Assembly (NCBI GenBank): GCA_043799565.1
Contig: JAZDNP010000013.1
Coordinates: forward strand, 5,847-69,846
Source of the DNA: Candidatus Brennerbacteria bacterium
GTDB lineage: Bacteria > Patescibacteriota > Minisyncoccia > UBA6257 > GWB1-50-10
Reading direction: 5' to 3'
DNA: 64,000 nt
Shown: positions 2,749 through 14,466 of the stretch, piece by piece
Layout: every line of letters begins with the position of its first letter
Numbering within the stretch: the stretch's first letter is position 1
The notes under the pieces: model-generated
Seen by the model: the letters and a program-made list of their open reading frames with translations, nothing else
Told to the model about the DNA's origin: nothing
Databases searched by the model: none
Position numbers and translations under genes: made by a program

Positions 2749-4626
2749 ATGATGGTAAGTAAAAGTACGGAAGGAAGTCACGGTACCCACCGCGCACCGG
2801 CACATGGGTCTCCTCGCGGAATGGGAGGGGCACGCCTGCCCGCCGATAGGCGCGGTTCGCCGCGCCGTGAGGGCCCCCGGACGCGTGGATTCCACGAAGC
2901 CGCCCGTCCCGCACGGAAAATAACGCACCGCCCTGTTATCACCAATCGCGCGCCTTCGTCGCCCGATGCGGTGCGTTTTGTCGCACTAGGAGGATTGGAG
3001 GAGATCGGAAGGAACATGATGTTCTTTGAGTACAAGGACGAGATCGTGGTCATTGACATGGGGCTCCAGTTCCCCGAGATAGAAACGCCGGGCATTGATT
3101 ACATTATCCCGAACGTCACGTACCTTGAGGAGAAAAAAAAGAATATTAAGGCGGTCATCATCACGCACGGTCACTACGACCACATAGGCGCGATACCTTA
3201 TCTTTTGGAAAAGCTCGGAAACCCTCCGATGTACGCCACGATCCTTACGCGTGAGATTGTGATGAAGCGTCAGGATGATTTCCCGAACTCGCCGAAACCG
3301 AACTTCGTGCTCATTAAGGGCGGCGAAGAGCACAAACTCGGGAACTATTTCTCCGCACGATTTTTTGATGTGGTCCACAACATCCCCGAAGGTATCGGCA
3401 TCATCCTCAAAACGCCTGTGGGGAATGTGCTTCACCCCGGCGAATTTAAGTTTGACTACGACACCGACGGAAAACCAAAAGGTTTGGACACATGGAAGTG
3501 GGCGTGCGAACAGGGCATCCACACCATGATGCTCGATTCCACCGGAGCGGAAACTCCCGGCTACGCGCTCTCGGAGCGCATCGTGGAGGCGGAGCTGGAG
3601 AAGCTATTCAAGACCGCGCCGGGCCGCATCATCGTCGGCACCTTCGCTTCGCTCCTGGACCGCTTGGGCGAAATCGTGAAAATCGCAGAAAAGCTCGGGC
3701 GCAAAGTGGCGCTTTCGGGTTATTCCATGAAATCCAACGTGCAGATCGCTCAGCGGCTCGGCTACTTCAAATTCAACAAGGAAACGATTATTCCGCTTGA
3801 AGAAATAGGGAAATATAAGGACCACGAGATTTTAGTGCTTTCCACGGGCGCGCAGGGTGAACCGAACGCGTCTTTGATGCGTGTCGCGAACGGCGAGCAC
3901 AAACAAATCCGCATCAAGCCGACCGACACGATAGTGCTCTCCTCTTCGGTGGTGCCGGGGAACGAAAAAAGCGTGCAGAACCTGAAAGACAACCTCGCAC
4001 GCTTGGGGGCGACCATCTACCACCACAAAATGTTGGACATCCACTCTTCGGGTCACGCACCGCAGGAAGAGTTGAAAACGGTGATGGGCCTCGTAAAACC
4101 AAAATACTTCCTCCCCATCCACGGGTATTACTTCATGCGGTGGCGGAACGCGAAGCTCGCGCAGGAAGTGATAGGGTTGAAACCCACGGACACGGTGGTG
4201 GCCGACAACGGCCTCGTCGTTGAGATATCGAAAACCGGCATTCGCCTCACCGGCGAAGAGGTGCCTTCGTACTATGTGATGGTGGACGGGCTCGGCGTCG
4301 GCGACGTCGGTGAAGTGGTGCTCCGCGACCGCATTACGCTCGCGCAAGAAGGCATGCTCGTTATCATCATCACGCTCTCTAAGCGCGATGGGCGGATACT
4401 CAAAAACCCCGACATCATCTCACGCGGCTTCATCTACCTTAAAGAGCAACAGGGCCTTTTGGAGGAGATTCGGAAGCACATCCGCGGCATTATCGGACGC
4501 ATTCCCCACTACCAATCGGTGGATGGTGAGTATGTAAAAACGCTCGTCCGCGACCAGATAGGCCAGTTCTTGTTCACCAAGACCAAGCGTAGACCAATGA
4601 TTCTGCCTGTGGTCATAGAGATATAG
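2749..4626 (+). CDS. rnj: ribonuclease J (beta-CASP metallo-beta-lactamase RNase); start uncertain, alternative GTG at 2971
   Basis: HGHYDH motif, beta-CASP and C-terminal domain; the conserved core begins VRFVALGGLEEIGRNMM at 2971. The upstream 74 codons are a GC-rich Arg/Pro/Gly-rich extension. Confidence 0.8.
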   Translation: MMVSKSTEGSHGTHRAPAHGSPRGMGGARLPADRRGSPRREGPRTRGFHEAARPARKITHRPVITNRAPSSPDAVRFVALGGLEEIGRNMMFFEYKDEIVVIDMGLQFPEIETPGIDYIIPNVTYLEEKKKNIKAVIITHGHYDHIGAIPYLLEKLGNPPMYATILTREIVMKRQDDFPNSPKPNFVLIKGGEEHKLGNYFSARFFDVVHNIPEGIGIILKTPVGNVLHPGEFKFDYDTDGKPKGLDTWKWACEQGIHTMMLDSTGAETPGYALSERIVEAELEKLFKTAPGRIIVGTFASLLDRLGEIVKIAEKLGRKVALSGYSMKSNVQIAQRLGYFKFNKETIIPLEEIGKYKDHEILVLSTGAQGEPNASLMRVANGEHKQIRIKPTDTIVLSSSVVPGNEKSVQNLKDNLARLGATIYHHKMLDIHSSGHAPQEELKTVMGLVKPKYFLPIHGYYFMRWRNAKLAQEVIGLKPTDTVVADNGLVVEISKTGIRLTGEEVPSYYVMVDGLGVGDVGEVVLRDRITLAQEGMLVIIITLSKRDGRILKNPDIISRGFIYLKEQQGLLEEIRKHIRGIIGRIPHYQSVDGEYVKTLVRDQIGQFLFTKTKRRPMILPVVIEI

Positions 4627-6068: not shown

Positions 6069-6308
6069 ATGGAAACTACGAATACAATGGAGATTTCGCC
6101 GAAACTCCGCCTCGCGGCTGCGCTTTTCTGCGGCTTCTTCGGTTTCCTCGGCATCCACCGCTTCTACGTGGGAAAAACCGGCACGGGAATCCTTATGATA
6201 TTGACCGCGGGCGGCTTTGGTATTTGGATCGCCATCGACTTCATCTTCATCGTCCTCGGCCAATTCCGCGACAAAGAGGGCCGCTTGGTTAAGCGTTGGA
6301 TGGACTAG
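6069..6308 (+). CDS. TM2 domain-containing small membrane protein
   Basis: 79 aa with two TM helices and a FLGIHRFYVGKTGTGIL motif typical of the TM2 domain. Confidence 0.55.
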   Translation: METTNTMEISPKLRLAAALFCGFFGFLGIHRFYVGKTGTGILMILTAGGFGIWIAIDFIFIVLGQFRDKEGRLVKRWMD

Positions 6309-7029
6309 ACGGAACGTTTGAACCCGTCAAAAACCACCGAAGCGTATCTGTTGGTACCTCACCTTCCTCGTCGGCGAGGTGTTCTTTTTCTGCGCTCCTC
6401 GTCGCGAGAAATTCGTTGAGCGCGTTCCGTTCTCCTTCCGGAAGGTGCGCGATTTCATCCTCGTCCGCGAGAAGAAATCCTTTGAAAAAGAGCCAGCGTG
6501 GGCTGTGTTCGGCGTTCGGGTCGTTCGGAAGATCGGCAAGCGTAAAATCGGATGAGCTCTTGTCGGTCTCTTGGATATACGCATCAAGCGTTGCGTCTTC
6601 AATACCGTATTCACTCATGTTATCGAATACGTTTTTCAGAAGTTCGTGATGCGCGGTGCGTCCTTCTCCATAGAAAGCCTCGTGAAGACCGGACTCGGGG
6701 TTTGTTTTCTTACGGTCAATAAAAATGACGAAGGCGCGGAATGCCCGCTGTTTCCCTTCGCGCTCGGGCGCAAGATAGCGATGTGCTTCGTCGTCAGGTA
6801 CGCCAAAACTCATACACACATCCTCGCGTGCTTCTTCATACCGCTCGGTCTCGCCACTCGTGTCCATGCGGTGCTCTTTATGGAGCTCGACGTGGAGCGT
6901 CTGCGAAACCTTCGGGATTTCCGCCTCCACAATATGACTGTTCACAATGCGAAGGATGCGGAGTTGCCGCTTCTTTTCCTCCCCTTCTTCCTCTGCAGGC
7001 GCCTTAAATATTTCAAACCTTTTTCCCAT
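6289..7029 (-). CDS. hypothetical acidic protein (no recognisable domain)
   Basis: 246-aa ORF 19 nt downstream of ileS on the same strand. The overlapping 279-aa plus-strand ORF is antisense to ileS and is judged spurious. Confidence 0.4.
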   Translation of the reverse strand: MGKRFEIFKAPAEEEGEEKKRQLRILRIVNSHIVEAEIPKVSQTLHVELHKEHRMDTSGETERYEEAREDVCMSFGVPDDEAHRYLAPEREGKQRAFRAFVIFIDRKKTNPESGLHEAFYGEGRTAHHELLKNVFDNMSEYGIEDATLDAYIQETDKSSSDFTLADLPNDPNAEHSPRWLFFKGFLLADEDEIAHLPEGERNALNEFLATRSAEKEHLADEEGEVPTDTLRWFLTGSNVPSSPSNA

Positions 7030-7047: not shown

Positions 7048-10000
7048 TTAAACCCTCCTTATCGCAAGCCACGCGGGCCAGTCGCCTATCTTCGTCTGGA
7101 GCTCCACATTATGCTTATGGACACGCCCGAATTCCACCGATTTTGCATTCACCTCGCGCATGAATTCCTTCTCCCGCGAACGGATAACATGGGTAAGCTC
7201 CGGCGGCACCTCGCAATAAACTGTAATAACGTCTTTGGGTGTAAGTTTCGCATCCTGACGCATTCCTTGCACCGTACGAGTGAGTTCGCGGAACCAGCCC
7301 TCTTCCAAAAGTTCATGCGTTATCTTTGTATCAAGCGTGGCGCTTTCTTTCACTTTCGGGTCCACTTTCACTGTTTTCACGTTTACCTCATCCGCAAGTA
7401 TGGAGAGTAGCTCTTTCTTTCCTTTCAACGCCGCTGATTTTACAACCATGAATGCGAGCGGCTGGCGCACTTTGATGCTTGCCTCGGCCCGCCTTGCAAG
7501 ACCCACCGACGCAAGTTGTCTTACTTCATCCATCGCCGCAGCCAGCTTTTTATTAATAAGCTTCTTGTCCGCTTTCGGCCACCATTCAAAATGCACGCTC
7601 TCCACCTCCCCTTTCTTATTGGGCACGAGCGATAGGTAAAGGGCTTCCGCAAAGAACGGAGTGAAGGGCGCCATAAGTTTGGTCAATTCCATAAGTGCAT
7701 ATCCGAGCGTGGCAGACGCGGCACGGTAATCTTTATCTCCGCCAGCCGACGGATCCGGCTTCTGAAGGCGCCGGCGCGAGCGCCTGATGTACCACCGCGA
7801 GAGATCGCCCGCGAACACTTCTATCGTACGCGCCGCGTCCCCCACTTCGTATGATTCAAGCGCCTTCGTTGCCGTATCTTTCGTTTCTTCCAAACGCGAA
7901 ATTATCCACTTGTCCAAAACGCCGTTTGCCGTGGGCCGCTTTCCTATTCCCGCATGTTTCTCCGCATACGTATCGTAGAAAAGATAGGAGTTGTAGACCA
8001 TCATCAAGAATTGGCGAAGTGTTTTCCCGATATCCGCTTCGTCAAATTTCTTCGGCTCGCCCGGCGGATTTACGGAGTAAAGGTACCAGCGCACCGCATC
8101 AATGCCGTATTTCTGTATCATCGCCCACGGATCCACCGTGTTCCCTTTTGACTTGCTCATCTTCTGCCCGTTCTTATCCAACACAAGTCCGAGTGAAATG
8201 ACGTTCTTGTACGAGCGCCCCTTGCCCATCAGCACACCTATCGCAAGAAGTGTATAAAACCATCCGCGCGTTTGGTCCACACCTTCACTGATGTAATCCG
8301 CCGGGTATTCTTTCTTTCCCGCCCCCGCAAACGGCATCGCGCCCGAATCGAACCACACGTCCAACACTTCGGGTATACGTTTCATCGTCCCTTTACACTT
8401 CGCGCATGCGAACGTGACGTCATCCACGTACGGGCGGTGGAGATCCGTTCGGCCTTCGGCGTCGCGCGGCAATGTGCCAGTTCGGACGTTATACCTCTCA
8501 CCTGTTTCCGGGTACACGAGTGAAAGTTGAGCTTCATCTGAAACTCCTTCCAGTGTTCCTTTTAATATCCAAAGTGGGTCCCCGTGGCTTACTACGATGA
8601 TGGTTTTCCTTTGATAGCGCTCGTCAATTGACTGGAACGCCTTCCACATCCGCGCGCGGACGTCATTCCACGTTTCCCCGCCGTGCGGATTTTTATCGAA
8701 CATCTCGTGCTCGCCGTTGAAAAGCTTGTAAAAGTCTTCCGTCGGCTTCCCTGCGACTTTTCCCCCGTCCATGTCCCGAAGGTCCGGCTCAACTGCGAGC
8801 GTACCGCCGAGGACTCCCTGTAGTATCTTCCCCGTTTCTTTGGCGCGCGCGAGATTTGAGGTCACAATATAATCCGGCTTCACTTTTTTCATCGCGAGCG
8901 CGGTGCGCCGCACAGCCACTTCACCTTTTTTGATGAGGTGTGAGGTGAACGCCTTGGTGTCTACCGCCGTTCCGCAAAGGCCGAGGACATTGTGGTCCGC
9001 TTCCCCATGCCGCACGAATATGAAAACATTCCGTCCTCCTGCTCGCTCCTGAACCTCTTCCATACTGCCCAAAACCTCCACATGGTCACATTTTTCGCAC
9101 TGCCAGATAGGCAAAGGCGTTCCCCAGTAGCGGGAACGTGAAATGGCCCAATCCTTAACTTCGCGGAGCCATTCACCGAAGCGACCATCGCGAAGATTTG
9201 CGGGAACCCATTTAATCTTCTTGTTCTCCGAAAGCAATTTTGCACGAAGCTTGGACATCGCGATGAACCATGAGTCACGCGCGTAGTAGAGGAGCGGCGT
9301 TTTACACCTCCAGCAGAAGGGGTACTCGTGCGAGTATTTCTCGGTCTTGAAAAGCAGGCCTTTCTTTTCCAAGTGTCCAAATATCTTCTTCTCGGTCTCA
9401 GACGATTTCACGTAGAGTCCCCAAAACCCTTTCACGTCCACGGTAAATTTCCCCGCCTCGTCCACCGTGTGGCGCGCAGGGAGCCCCACTTTCATGCCTA
9501 GTTGATAATCGTCCTCTCCGTACATCACCGCAGTGTGTACCACGCCCGTGCCGTCCTCCGTCGTCACAAAGTTCGCGGGGTACACCCTGTACGAGGTCTT
9601 TGACTTGAGCGAAGGAACATCAAAAAGCGGCTCATATTCTACACCGATCAAATCTTTCCCTTTCATTTCTCCCACAATCTCGTGCGGCTCGGGAATGACC
9701 GCGATACGTTCTTTTGCGAGAATATAAATCTCCTTCCCCCCCTTCACTTTTACGTACGTCGTTTTCTGGTTGATCGCGAGCGCGACATTGCCCGGCAACG
9801 TCCATGGTGTTGTGGTCCACGAGAGAATAAATGCTTTCAATTTTGGCGCGTAGAATTTCACATAAACCGACGTGTCTTCCACCGTCTCGTATCCAAGCGC
9901 AACTTCATGTGATGCGAGCGTAGTACCGCACCGCGTGCACCAATGCACCACCTTGTGGCCGCGGTAGAGAAGTTTTTTCTTCCATACCTCCTTCAATATC

Positions 10001-10479
10001 CCCCACACCGCCTCCATATAGCGGTTCTCATACGTGATGTACGGGTGGTCCATATCCAGCCAGAACCCCATCCGTTCGGTAAGCTTTTCCCACTCATCTT
10101 TGTATTTCCACACCGACTGCTTGCACTGCGCGTTAAAGGCCGCAATGCCGAACTTTTCAATCTCTTTTTTGGACTTCAGTCCCAGCGCCTTCTCCACTTC
10201 TATTTCCACCGGAAGCCCGTGGGTGTCCCACCCTCCGCGCCGCGGCACGTGGAAACCCTGCATCGTTTTGTACCGGAGCATGATGTCCTTGAACGAGCGC
10301 GCGAGTACATGGTGGAGACCCGGGCGGCCATTCGCGGTAGGAGGGCCTTCGTAGAACACGAACGGTTTTCTCTTCGCGGTCCGCGCCAAACTTTTCTTGA
10401 AAACATCGTTCGCCCGCCAGTACGCAAGTACCTTTTCTTCCACCGCGGGGAGCGAAAATTCCTTGAGATTGCGGAGCAT
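7048..10479 (-). CDS. ileS: isoleucyl-tRNA synthetase (type 2 / eukaryote-like) carrying an inserted histidine-phosphatase (PGAM-like) domain
   Basis: Shows PTANG...LHH, a CP1 editing domain, KMSKS, a WQCEKC...CAKC zinc knuckle and the DVWFDSG block. About 190 aa inserted between the two CxxC pairs carry RHGEADHN and VVSHGD histidine-phosphatase motifs. Confidence 0.9.
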   Translation of the reverse strand: MLRNLKEFSLPAVEEKVLAYWRANDVFKKSLARTAKRKPFVFYEGPPTANGRPGLHHVLARSFKDIMLRYKTMQGFHVPRRGGWDTHGLPVEIEVEKALGLKSKKEIEKFGIAAFNAQCKQSVWKYKDEWEKLTERMGFWLDMDHPYITYENRYMEAVWGILKEVWKKKLLYRGHKVVHWCTRCGTTLASHEVALGYETVEDTSVYVKFYAPKLKAFILSWTTTPWTLPGNVALAINQKTTYVKVKGGKEIYILAKERIAVIPEPHEIVGEMKGKDLIGVEYEPLFDVPSLKSKTSYRVYPANFVTTEDGTGVVHTAVMYGEDDYQLGMKVGLPARHTVDEAGKFTVDVKGFWGLYVKSSETEKKIFGHLEKKGLLFKTEKYSHEYPFCWRCKTPLLYYARDSWFIAMSKLRAKLLSENKKIKWVPANLRDGRFGEWLREVKDWAISRSRYWGTPLPIWQCEKCDHVEVLGSMEEVQERAGGRNVFIFVRHGEADHNVLGLCGTAVDTKAFTSHLIKKGEVAVRRTALAMKKVKPDYIVTSNLARAKETGKILQGVLGGTLAVEPDLRDMDGGKVAGKPTEDFYKLFNGEHEMFDKNPHGGETWNDVRARMWKAFQSIDERYQRKTIIVVSHGDPLWILKGTLEGVSDEAQLSLVYPETGERYNVRTGTLPRDAEGRTDLHRPYVDDVTFACAKCKGTMKRIPEVLDVWFDSGAMPFAGAGKKEYPADYISEGVDQTRGWFYTLLAIGVLMGKGRSYKNVISLGLVLDKNGQKMSKSKGNTVDPWAMIQKYGIDAVRWYLYSVNPPGEPKKFDEADIGKTLRQFLMMVYNSYLFYDTYAEKHAGIGKRPTANGVLDKWIISRLEETKDTATKALESYEVGDAARTIEVFAGDLSRWYIRRSRRRLQKPDPSAGGDKDYRAASATLGYALMELTKLMAPFTPFFAEALYLSLVPNKKGEVESVHFEWWPKADKKLINKKLAAAMDEVRQLASVGLARRAEASIKVRQPLAFMVVKSAALKGKKELLSILADEVNVKTVKVDPKVKESATLDTKITHELLEEGWFRELTRTVQGMRQDAKLTPKDVITVYCEVPPELTHVIRSREKEFMREVNAKSVEFGRVHKHNVELQTKIGDWPAWLAIRRV

Positions 10480-11563: not shown

Positions 11564-13195
11564 TTACATCTTGGAAGGAGCGGAGATGCCGAGAATGCGG
11601 AAAAGATTTTCAAACACGATGATGCTCCCTTTGACGAGCGCGAGACGTGCAGCGGCGAGCGCGGGGGCTTCTCCTACCACGTGCTCCCTTTCGTAGAAGT
11701 TGTGGAAGGTACGGGCGAGCGTTGACGTGTATTGCGTCAAGCGGTGCACGGCGTAGTCGCTCGCGGCGTCCGAAAGGACCTCGGGGAAGCGTGAGAGCGC
11801 AAAAAGGAGCGCCGCGTCTGCGGGCGTATTCAAGAGCGAGAGGTTGGGTTTCCCTTTTATGTTCTTAGCCTTCACAACCACTGCCTTGGCGCGCACATAG
11901 GCGTATTGGGCATAGTAGACCGGGTTCTTGTTGGAGCGTTCCTTCGCGAGGTCCAGGTTGAAGTCCATATGCGACTCGGGCGCCACGGAGAGGAAGAAGA
12001 AGCGCGCGGCGTCCGCGCCTACTTCCTCCACCACCTCTTCAAACGTCACGAAGTTCCCCTTCCGCTTGGACATTTTCACCTCTTGCCCGCCTCTTAGAAG
12101 GCGGACCGCCTGCGTTATGAGCACGCGGGAGCTCGGGAGGCCTACGAGCTTCGCCGCGGCCTGTATGCGGGCCACGTAGCCGTAGTGGTCGGGGCCCAGG
12201 ATATTTATCTTCGCCTTGAACCCGCGCATCTTCGTCTCAAGGTAGTGGCCGGCATCCGCAAGAAAATAAGTAGGAAATCCACTTTTCGTGATGAGCACAC
12301 GGTCTTTGTCGTCGCCTTCCGCGGTCGTTTTGAGCCACACCCCGCCGTCTTTTTCGTAGACCGCCTTCTTTTTCTTGAACACCGCGAGCGCTTTTTTCGC
12401 GTACCCTTTCGCGTGTATGTTTTTCTCCGACGTGTACCTGTCGAATTTGATGTGCGCTTCTTTTTCCAATGCGCGCTGTATGAGTTTCAGGAAATCCTTC
12501 GCGGCGCGTTCGCCGAGCTTCGCCGGGTCCGCGCGAAGCTTCTTTACGTCCGTTTTATGTTTCGCGGCCCATTCGGAAATATATTCACCTTGGTATAAAT
12601 TTTCATTCTCTGGGCCTTGGGCGACCGTGGAACGGTTTAGCCCGGCGAGAAGCGATTTTCCGAGCGTGAATATCTGGTTCCCTGTGTCGTTCACGTAGTA
12701 TTCGCGCTCCACCGATGCGCCTGCGGCTTGAAGTATGTTCGCAAGCACATCGCCCAAGAATCCGCCGCGGCCGTTCGCGAGCGTGAGAGGTCCGGTGGGA
12801 TTTGCGGAAACAAACTCCACTTGAATTTTCTCACCCTTCCGCGCTTTGGAAGCGCCGTATTTTTTCTTCGCCTTCGCGATAGCGTTCAATTCCTCATGGA
12901 GCGCTTCGGGCGTGAGAAAAAAGTTTATGAAGCCCGGCGCCGCGGCGCGTGCCTCACGGATAACGTCGGACTTAATGGCGGACGCAATCCGCTCCGCAAT
13001 CGCCATCGGCGACTTCCCTTCCTGTTTCGCCAAAGCAAAAGCCACGTTCGTGGCGTAGTGGCCAAATTTGGGGTCTTCAGGAATGGAGAGCGCTACCGCC
13101 ACGTCCTTCGGGACGTGTTTTTCGATGGTTTGGAGAACTTGGTCGCGTATCATTTTACTTGCCATTTCCTTCTTTTTCCATTGTACACCTAACAC
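11564..13195 (-). CDS. argS: arginyl-tRNA synthetase (HIGH motif replaced by TLAN)
   Basis: VEFVSANPTGPL...GRGG block, MSKRKGN and a DALR anticodon-binding C-terminus. The positions where HVGH normally sits read TLAN. Confidence 0.85.
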   Translation of the reverse strand: MLGVQWKKKEMASKMIRDQVLQTIEKHVPKDVAVALSIPEDPKFGHYATNVAFALAKQEGKSPMAIAERIASAIKSDVIREARAAAPGFINFFLTPEALHEELNAIAKAKKKYGASKARKGEKIQVEFVSANPTGPLTLANGRGGFLGDVLANILQAAGASVEREYYVNDTGNQIFTLGKSLLAGLNRSTVAQGPENENLYQGEYISEWAAKHKTDVKKLRADPAKLGERAAKDFLKLIQRALEKEAHIKFDRYTSEKNIHAKGYAKKALAVFKKKKAVYEKDGGVWLKTTAEGDDKDRVLITKSGFPTYFLADAGHYLETKMRGFKAKINILGPDHYGYVARIQAAAKLVGLPSSRVLITQAVRLLRGGQEVKMSKRKGNFVTFEEVVEEVGADAARFFFLSVAPESHMDFNLDLAKERSNKNPVYYAQYAYVRAKAVVVKAKNIKGKPNLSLLNTPADAALLFALSRFPEVLSDAASDYAVHRLTQYTSTLARTFHNFYEREHVVGEAPALAAARLALVKGSIIVFENLFRILGISAPSKM

Positions 13196-14147: not shown

Positions 14148-14466
14148 GGGCATGACGGGCCTTGTTAGCGCGTGAAGTAGAGAGCTTGCAGGCCGAGCCG
14201 ACCATTCGCTCGTAAATCCATGGTCAAACCTAAAACTGCCAACGACAACGTTGCAGCTCCCGCTTACGCTTTCGCGTAAGTAGGACATCGGTTCCCGACG
14301 CCTCATAGGGGTTCACCGGTGTAATAAATGAGGCTCGCCTTCGGTGAGACGGTTCAGTAGCCGAAGGCCAAATTACGAACCATTCGTTCTCGTAAGAGAA
14401 ATAAGCTTGTAGAGGGCTTTTTACCGAAAGCGTTACACTCCGGTTCAACTCCGGACATGTCCACCA
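14148..14466 (+). ncRNA. ssrA: tmRNA (transfer-messenger RNA)
   Basis: The 5' GGGCATG pairs with the 3' CATGTCC (G3-U wobble), followed by a T-arm TCCGG-TTCAACT-CCGGA and ACCA. Internal tag ORF at 14238-14279 encodes ANDNVAAPAYAFA then TAA; terminator hairpin at 14471-14494. Confidence 0.8.

Follow-up and report, generated by a model that had tools for sequence, protein, structure and literature searches.

A histidine-phosphatase domain between the zinc knuckles of a type-2 isoleucyl-tRNA synthetase in Parcubacteria

The ileS gene and its embedded domain

The window analyzed here is a 64,000-nucleotide stretch of contig JAZDNP010000013.1 from a Candidatus Brennerbacteria bacterium (assembly GCA_043799565.1). 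It carries on its minus strand an ileS gene for isoleucyl-tRNA synthetase (IleRS; the gene product is also called IleS below), in which a histidine-phosphatase domain lies in frame between the two knuckles of a zinc site. The open reading frame (ORF) is continuous, as described in an initial annotation made from the sequence alone, and the motifs WQCEKC, RHGEADHN, VVSHGD and CAKC all fall where that annotation put them; the range it gave for the insert, 8440-9030, corresponds to residues 484-680. The encoded protein is 100% identical to NCBI protein P0066, named there [quoted passage not shown]. The parts of the gene that are needed below, with the way in which each was placed, are as follows.

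7048..10479, minus strand: the ileS ORF, 1143 residues in one uninterrupted frame, encoding a type-2 IleRS with an embedded phosphatase domain.
9040..10479, minus strand: N-terminal part of IleRS, residues 1-480, which holds the first half of the Rossmann/HUP catalytic fold, CP1 including its editing domain, and connective sequence as far as the first zinc knuckle.
10309..10320, minus strand: class I signature in its swapped form, G54-L55-H56-H57, in which GxHH replaces HxGH (direct reading of the sequence).
9088..9105, minus strand: first zinc knuckle WQCEKC, residues 459-464, with C461 and C464 (located in the translation).
8446..9039, minus strand: the insert, residues 481-678, made up of a linker, the histidine-phosphatase domain, a subfamily-specific C-terminal strand (TGE..) and a return linker (from alignment to 1ILE).
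8530..9021, minus strand: the His_Phos_1 (PF00300) domain proper, residues 487-650 (from Pfam).
8989..9012, minus strand: RHGEADHN, residues 490-497, with R490, the nucleophile H491 and N497 (located in the translation).
8845..8847, minus strand: R545, the second arginine of the phosphate pocket, within S541-x3-R545-x3-T549 (from the homologue alignment).
8773..8775, minus strand: D569, the general acid/base position, Glu in most homologues (from the homologue alignment).
8578..8595, minus strand: VVSHGD, residues 629-634, with the second catalytic histidine H632 (located in the translation).
7051..8445, minus strand: C-terminal part of IleRS, residues 679-1143, with the remaining half of the catalytic fold, the anticodon-binding domain and, as type-2 C-terminal domain, DUF5915.
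8395..8406, minus strand: second zinc knuckle CAKC, residues 692-695, with C692 and C695 (located in the translation).
8149-8163, minus strand: KMSKS, residues 773-777 (located in the translation).

The protein was assigned to domain families by a Pfam scan, which placed tRNA-synt_1 in two pieces (E=7e-118) with His_Phos_1 nested between them, followed by Anticodon_1 and DUF5915 (residues 969-1142). The two stretches on either side of the insert together pass the equivalog model for ileS, TIGR00392, with 881.3 bits against a cut-off of 621.4. Conservation was read from an alignment of 200 IleS sequences, comprising 120 database proteins and 80 locus ORFs in partly overlapping sets, and from a smaller alignment of 75 sequences of the clade. 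The zinc ligands are kept in nearly all of the 200 homologues (C461 in 197, C464 in 195, C692 in 196 and C695 in 197), and the four cysteine pairs of the window IleRS are numbered as in both zinc sites of the Thermus thermophilus enzyme. In the clade alignment G54, H56 and H57 of the GxHH motif are invariant, and GxHH, K773-MSKS, W221-TTTPWT, GTGVVH and D324 are invariant or nearly so. Furthermore, an AlphaFold2 model of the full-length protein, built with the 75-sequence alignment, reached a mean predicted local distance difference test score (pLDDT) of 88.4 and a predicted template-modeling score (pTM) of 0.79, and Foldseek superposed its IleRS body on the type-2 structures 8C8W and 1ILE with target-normalized template-modeling (TM) scores of 0.82-0.91. 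To judge from its conserved GxHH, KMSKS and editing motifs and its zinc ligands, the IleRS part is itself intact, and DUF5915 together with the closest structural matches (1ILE and the Priestia megaterium enzyme IleRS2) identifies it as a type-2 IleRS. According to Brkic et al. (2023, PMC10485003), the GxHH variant is functional in IleRS2 and confers mupirocin hyper-resistance; because they carry the GxHH motif, the parcubacterial enzymes described here are predicted, on the basis of that report, to be hyper-resistant as well. NCBI gives many relatives, like the window IleS, no name beyond "class I tRNA ligase family protein", even though they match TIGR00392.

Alignment with the T. thermophilus enzyme locates the insertion precisely. 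The two proteins are collinear (E=1e-235), with residues 3-480 of the window IleS matching 3-480 of 1ILE and residues 679-1000 matching 489-819, so that about 198 residues in the window protein stand where the T. thermophilus enzyme has 8. The site belongs to the second zinc module of the connective region and comes shortly ahead of the second half of the catalytic fold. The distance from knuckle to knuckle is 227 residues here and 37 residues in T. thermophilus (C464 to C502, in homologous numbering); the initial annotation had taken 20-30 residues as the normal length of this loop in type-2 enzymes, a figure that the T. thermophilus distance corrects. The match to PF00300 in the window protein scores 108.8 bits (gathering threshold 21.7, E=3.6e-31) and covers profile positions 2-165 of 194, and the excised insert alone scores 111.6 bits. 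Together with the TIGR00392 result for the flanks, this bears out the proposal that a histidine phosphatase has been inserted in frame into an essential type-2 IleRS. The G+C content across the insert is 0.53-0.58, the same as in the remainder of ileS. The junctions, ...GGRN|VFIF... and ...EGRT|DLHRP..., lack the residues of intein splice sites (C/S/T at the start; HN followed by C/S/T at the end), the Pfam scan of the whole protein found no intein family and no homing-endonuclease profile, and no direct or inverted repeats were found flanking the insert. The frame is single throughout, and the statement that neither an intein nor a frame change is involved holds. No PADLOC-DB profile matched the insert, one of the free-standing relatives described below, or the ORF of 246 residues downstream of ileS. 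We reject the readings of the insert as an intein, a mobile element or part of a defense system.

Structure prediction, which the initial annotation had suggested as a check, gave a consistent picture. In the full-length model the insert has pLDDT values of 85-97 and the expected beta-alpha pattern, and a model of the insert alone scored 85.5 (pTM 0.83); the insert is thus predicted to fold as an independent PhoE-like domain. When the insert-only model was compared with solved structures by Foldseek, it matched phosphomonoesterases of about 200 residues with probability 1.00, TM scores of 0.70-0.78 and 21-25% identity, at nearly equal scores. These neighbors include 9MMH (a histidine-family phosphatase of the riboflavin pathway), PhoE/YhfR, iPSP, Rv2419c, TIGAR and CobC, with the longer dPGM mutases ranking below the phosphatases of about 200 residues; by sequence, the best solved relative is PhoE (E=2.4e-7). 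Likewise the domain, at about 165 residues, aligns best to phosphatases of about 200 residues and not to mutases of about 230-250. The insert falls short of the cut-offs of the dPGM models (dPGM_arch, in the set of NF038349, TIGR01258 and related models, 68 vs 225; pgm_1, 27.7 vs 81.7; GpmB, 41 vs 261) as well as those of CobC (TIGR03162, 59.4 vs 162.9), SixA (TIGR00249, 16.8 vs 74.5) and PspA (NF045917, 50 vs 350). For the RNase H/acid phosphatase model NF005567, whose cut-off is 326 bits, the insert scores 56 bits and the free-standing form 87 bits, and the window IleS does not match NF040702, ileS_w_GNAT (328 bits against 1999). The insert therefore belongs to branch 1 of the histidine phosphatase superfamily, by its profile match, its RHG nucleophile, its pocket of R545, acid and H632, and its fold, but to no characterized subfamily.

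Distribution, conservation and variant sites

The initial annotation had also proposed a survey of homologues, and the same insertion was found in hundreds of independent assemblies. A search with the full-length protein returned the window protein and 119 further clusters at 52-82% identity, and all 120 are annotated with both PF00133 and PF00300. With the insert as query, an exhaustive HMMER search across 1.84 billion cluster representatives yielded 322 matches at E<=1e-10; among the best 150 of these, which are clusters at 50% identity, 130 are IleS proteins with the domain and 20 lack IleS flanks. In a scan of one genome per GTDB species, 305 related ileS loci were found and the best 80 were analyzed. 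These 80 all come from metagenome-assembled genomes (MAGs) of the Patescibacteria/Parcubacteria type, encode IleS proteins of about 1150-1200 residues, and are labeled Brenner-, Jorgensen-, Wolfe-, Lipton-, Yanofsky-, Azam- or Doudnabacteria, Paceibacterota and others; every one carries a single phosphatase copy at the site seen in the window. A singleton reading of the architecture had arisen from a word-indexed search of a 5.8-billion-protein database with the insert alone, which returned only generic phosphatases at no more than 36% identity and no IleS, and it was overturned by the full-length, HMMER and genome scans. That search, made with a 242-residue insert query, missed all IleS fusions, even the protein from which the query was taken, whereas the full-length and HMMER searches found them by the hundred. 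The miss is an artifact of how the word-indexed tool selects candidates, and a negative from it with a short, divergent query does not show absence.

The window genome is itself metagenome-assembled, and one might suspect a chimeric contig, or two genes read as one by the gene caller. An exact-sequence look-up did not return the protein, perhaps owing to a stop codon in the query, but the protein is present at NCBI. The one-frame architecture recurs in assemblies that come from different studies and environments, and conserved zinc ligands flank the insert on both sides, so that we regard the chance of an assembly or gene-calling artifact as negligible.

The segment between the knuckles measures 207-245 residues in all 200 homologues. 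Within it R490, H491, S541, R545 and H632 are present in every sequence, and E602 is kept in 199/200, R610 in 198/200, G492 in 186/200 and N497 in 169/200. Position 569 is Glu in 185 sequences and Asp in 15; Asp is found in the window copy and recurs across several lineages. Set against this, the insert as a whole is on average 34% identical to the window protein across the same homologues, compared with 60% for the IleRS core. A domain that diverges quickly around a frozen active site suggests retained catalysis, and the alignment indicates that the catalytic residues of the insert are under strong purifying selection. The window copy has one private change, an Ile at position 516 (8932-8934, minus strand) in the LTxxG motif, where 193 of the 200 sequences, including all close relatives, have Thr. 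This T516I change may reflect genuine variation that alters the activity, or else a consensus error of the MAG.

We then mapped the domains of variant proteins with hidden Markov models (HMMs) of the IleRS core and of the insert. In other lineages the same phosphatase occurs at three further IleRS sites, at reference residues ~425, ~722-730 (the loop past the second knuckle) and ~850-860 (between the catalytic core and the anticodon-binding domain), making four insertion sites in total, all in or beside the catalytic core. Tandem arrays are also found, with two copies in P0308 and, in P0292, at least three at the window's site and one elsewhere. Every complete copy in the variant-site or multi-copy proteins (P0270, P0307, P0308, P0315 and P0292) keeps the catalytic residues. 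Not one of the 130 IleS fusions is a simple N-terminal read-through, although the order of the genes in relatives with a separate phosphatase makes that the easiest accident. Some variants carry additional domains. P0314 (locus L096, 5001-9188) has a small P-loop kinase at reference residue ~725, on one contig only, which matches AAA_18, AAA_33 and Zeta_toxin weakly; an argument for an end-healing kinase-phosphatase pair built on this protein was dropped, given the weak matches and the single contig. P0332 also has a NUDIX domain at the start of CP1, and P0235 has a GNAT domain and an IS200-like Y1 transposase segment in a protein that is truncated and possibly the product of a disrupted gene. 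In these bacteria IleRS seems to be a hot spot for the insertion of enzyme domains.

The multiple sites, the tandem arrays of up to three or four copies per gene and the transposase segment in one variant could be read as traces of a selfish in-frame mobile domain that spreads within and between ileS genes in the manner of inteins or in-frame repeat elements. Against this, there are no intein or homing-endonuclease profiles and no bracketing repeats, and the composition of the insert is that of its host gene. In all 80 species loci there is exactly one copy, at the same site, that has diverged along with its host, and a selfish spacer would have no need for strict conservation of a catalytic site. 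We consider this explanation highly improbable.

A free-standing phosphatase beside argS and ileS

The HMMER matches include free-standing proteins of about 190 residues that are 33-39% identical to the insert and share the motifs of its subfamily (SHGDPLW, P.GGESW.DV and a C-terminal TGELR strand). An HMM built from the inserts gives them 180-220 bits, as much as it gives genuine inserts. The free-standing family is large, with more than 120 clusters at E<1e-70 in a profile search, some of them labeled Parcubacteria at NCBI. All ten of the distinct free-standing members whose location was looked up adjoin argS, ileS or both, and usually lie 0-20 nt ahead of ileS. On the four long contigs the genes run SmpB, argS, up to two small ORFs, phosphatase, ileS, another small ORF and recO, and the IleS proteins there have 946-966 residues and lack PF00300. 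At the six loci measured, the distance from the phosphatase stop to the ileS start ranges from an 11-nt overlap to a 20-nt gap. Outside the insert, two of the insert-less IleS proteins share 49-52% identity with the window protein; they have the same GxHH motif and zinc knuckles, and a short loop where the insert would be. In the 64-kb window, and within about 6 kb of ileS in each of the 80 loci that bear the insert, no free-standing copy of the subfamily turned up; the sole other match was a partial ORF with a weak score (48.6 bits) at the end of L042. The separate gene and the embedded domain are two states of one locus, and they never occur together in the same examined locus. Fusion and conserved adjacency together point to a functional link between the phosphatase and IleRS. 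A rough neighbor-joining tree of the domains sets the subfamily apart from generic phosphatases, groups 66 of 70 free-standing sequences in one clade, and leaves the order of insertion and fission unresolved.

In the window, argS represents the upstream side of this neighborhood.

11564..13195, minus strand: argS, the gene for arginyl-tRNA synthetase, which lies upstream of ileS in the same orientation and is part of the conserved argS-(phosphatase)-ileS neighborhood in relatives.

Among the 60 insert-bearing loci with enough upstream sequence, argS lies upstream of ileS and on its strand in 27. Just past argS, at 14148-14466 on the plus strand, the window has a tmRNA gene, and relatives have SmpB, the protein partner of tmRNA, at the equivalent place; a neighborhood of translation rescue, argS and ileS seems to be conserved. 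Directly downstream of ileS, at 6289-7029 on the minus strand, lies an ORF for a strongly acidic protein of 246 residues without a Pfam or PADLOC match, and in relatives a small unannotated ORF also follows ileS, ahead of recO. A few of the free-standing phosphatases are auto-annotated as "isoleucyl-tRNA synthetase" by JGI. In locus L081, an insert-less ileS beside a free-standing phosphatase was called as two ORFs with one in-frame TGA between them (~4347-4373, minus strand). The TGA takes exactly the place of the Trp that is invariant in the CWRC zinc motif (YPHC*RCHTPL), which suggests that this organism reads TGA as sense (code 4 or 25) or that it is a sequencing error. In the L081 IleS the second zinc site is, moreover, without its cysteines.

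The free-standing members are unusually basic, with a net charge per 100 residues of +8.9; generic PhoE-like proteins have -2.4, and the inserted copies +2.1, the same as their hosts. In three of four genomes the free-standing members are more basic than the neighboring proteins, and low-GC, lysine-rich proteomes account for part of this. Their basicity weakly favors a nucleic-acid or protein partner. It could also be taken, along with T516I and E569D in the window copy, as a sign that the domain is a structural or ligand-binding element that grips, for example, a tRNA phosphate without turnover. The pattern of conservation argues otherwise. In all 200 sequences and in every tandem copy, neither the two histidines nor the two arginines vary and the acidic position holds Glu or Asp without exception, which is the pattern of a working site, and mere binding would not require a nucleophile, an acid and a second histidine together. 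Moreover, the inserted copies are not basic, and part of the basicity of the free-standing proteins follows from low-GC composition. A non-catalytic module is thus very unlikely.

A further alternative is that the domain is a hitch-hiking housekeeping phosphatase whose job is unrelated to aminoacylation (acting, for example, on phosphoserine, in the riboflavin pathway or on a sugar phosphate), and that fusion only ensures its co-expression in a tiny genome. Its nearest structures (9MMH, iPSP, Rv2419c and PhoE) are indeed small-molecule metabolic phosphatases, the several sites and tandem copies imply that exact geometry is not critical, and the neighboring genes are housekeeping genes. However, accidental fusion within an operon should be end-to-end, and 130 of 130 fusions are internal, in or beside the catalytic core and at four independent sites. 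The linkage to ileS persists even where the IleS protein, compared outside the insert, shares only 39-52% identity with that of the window, and among the synthetases encoded in these loci (ArgRS, TrpRS and class II) only IleRS has the domain. We judge such a passenger role unlikely, although it carries the most weight among the rival readings.

Proposed role and relation to known systems

We propose that the insert is probably an active PhoE-like phosphomonoesterase that works with IleRS in Parcubacteria, either as a separate partner or as a built-in domain. In some lineages it is a separate protein of about 190 residues, whose gene directly precedes ileS, often with an overlap, and follows argS; in a large subclade, to which this Brennerbacteria genome belongs, the same domain is built into IleRS itself. 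A surface loop held by two zinc knuckles would let the phosphatase fold independently without disrupting the synthetase, and the domain would hydrolyze a phosphate monoester on a substrate met at or near the IleRS catalytic core. The initial annotation had raised a phosphorylated nucleotide, an adenylate-related substrate or a regulatory module as possible roles; the aminoacyl-adenylate itself is a mixed anhydride and an unlikely substrate for the histidine-phosphatase fold. As a tentative first candidate, we suggest a small phosphorylated nucleotide or metabolite tied to the IleRS reaction or to its inhibition; a small molecule is favored by the structural neighbors and by the tolerance of different insertion points and copy numbers. 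A 2'- or 3'-terminal phosphate on the tRNA acceptor end seems unlikely, and a phospho-residue on IleRS (or ArgRS) itself is rather improbable, though either would be the more striking result.

Several observations weigh against the proposal of a phosphomonoesterase dedicated to IleRS. The adjacency of phosphatase and ileS could be partly historical, argS-ileS synteny being common in the clade anyway, and T516I and E569D could mean that the activity of the window copy is altered or weakened. The several insertion loops and the tandem amplification speak against one exact geometry relative to the tRNA end. Since the insert falls below the cut-off of every curated functional subfamily, specificity cannot be transferred to it by homology, and we know of no member of the superfamily that acts on RNA ends.

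A more specific idea, which we put forward as a doubtful one, is that the domain provides a quality-control or protection activity in the synthetase, directed at a macromolecular phosphate in the region of the IleRS active site. In one version it would remove a blocking 2'/3'-(pyro)phosphate from the CCA end of tRNA(Ile), and so repair tRNA damaged by a toxin or nuclease; in the other it would reverse an inhibitory phosphorylation of the synthetase itself. HipA-type kinases inhibit other class I synthetases by phosphorylation. If protection is indeed the role, it would allow Parcubacteria to maintain the function of IleRS, and perhaps of ArgRS, during an attack, and the occasional co-inserted P-loop kinase, NUDIX and GNAT domains would belong to the same toolkit for end processing or counter-defense.

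No mention of a histidine phosphatase in or beside IleRS was found in the literature searched, in which recent papers on IleRS evolution and structure were covered by term searches, and the main text of a 2026 preprint that annotates the domain architectures of 96,219 IleRS sequences mentions no phosphatase in IleRS. We found no curated model for IleS with a histidine phosphatase and no solved or described IleRS with such an insert. As far as we can tell, the architecture is public under automatic Pfam labels but has been neither described nor studied. Aminoacyl-tRNA synthetases are among the best-studied enzymes, IleRS being a textbook case for editing and for antibiotic resistance, and a second, apparently active phosphatase center has no place in the known cycle of aminoacylation and editing. 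The domain is ancient, has been kept across a major radiation of ultra-small, gene-shedding bacteria and has been re-inserted repeatedly around the catalytic core. What this would imply is an unrecognized step coupled to Ile-tRNA synthesis, possibly the clearance or generation of a phosphorylated small molecule, the conditioning of the tRNA end, or protection against a phosphorylating toxin. The paired states, separate gene and inserted domain, make the question directly testable with recombinant proteins. There is also a practical consequence for annotation, as misleading names may cause metabolic reconstructions of candidate-phyla genomes to score IleRS wrongly as missing.

The closest relatives of the domain itself are the PhoE/YhfR-type phosphatases and their kin (iPSP, Rv2419c, CobC, TIGAR and 9MMH), with which the insert has the alpha/beta fold in common. 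It shares with the PhoE-type enzymes the catalytic set of an RHG nucleophile histidine, two arginines, an acidic residue and a second histidine, and like them it is small, without the dPGM-specific insertion and tail. The insert subfamily differs from these relatives in having its own conserved residues (N484, D536, K625 and I627, SH[GE][DY]PLW and the C-terminal TGE(L)R strand) and in being embedded in or genetically coupled to IleRS, as no known PhoE-type member is. A fusion of His_Phos_1 to a nucleic-acid enzyme is also seen in the actinobacterial bifunctional RNase H/acid phosphatase (NF005567; Rv2228c type), which is among the best NCBIfam matches of the insert and of the free-standing form, although both lie far under its cut-off. 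That protein is an end-to-end fusion with another partner, whereas the window IleS is a loop insertion; to our knowledge, the functional link between its two halves is also unresolved.

The synthetase, in turn, has full-length homology and a common fold with the type-2 enzymes of T. thermophilus (1ILE) and P. megaterium (IleRS2, 8C8U-8C9D). It shares DUF5915 and both zinc sites with them at homologous positions and has the GxHH of the hyper-resistant IleRS2, and it differs by the ~198 extra residues that form a second enzyme domain between the knuckles of the second zinc site. Accessory catalytic modules are already known in synthetases, the CP1 editing domain and the GNAT domain of some IleS proteins (NF040702) being examples, and the principle of an additional enzymatic module on the synthetase is the same here. 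The module here is a histidine phosphatase, which brings to IleRS a chemistry without a known role in the aminoacylation cycle.

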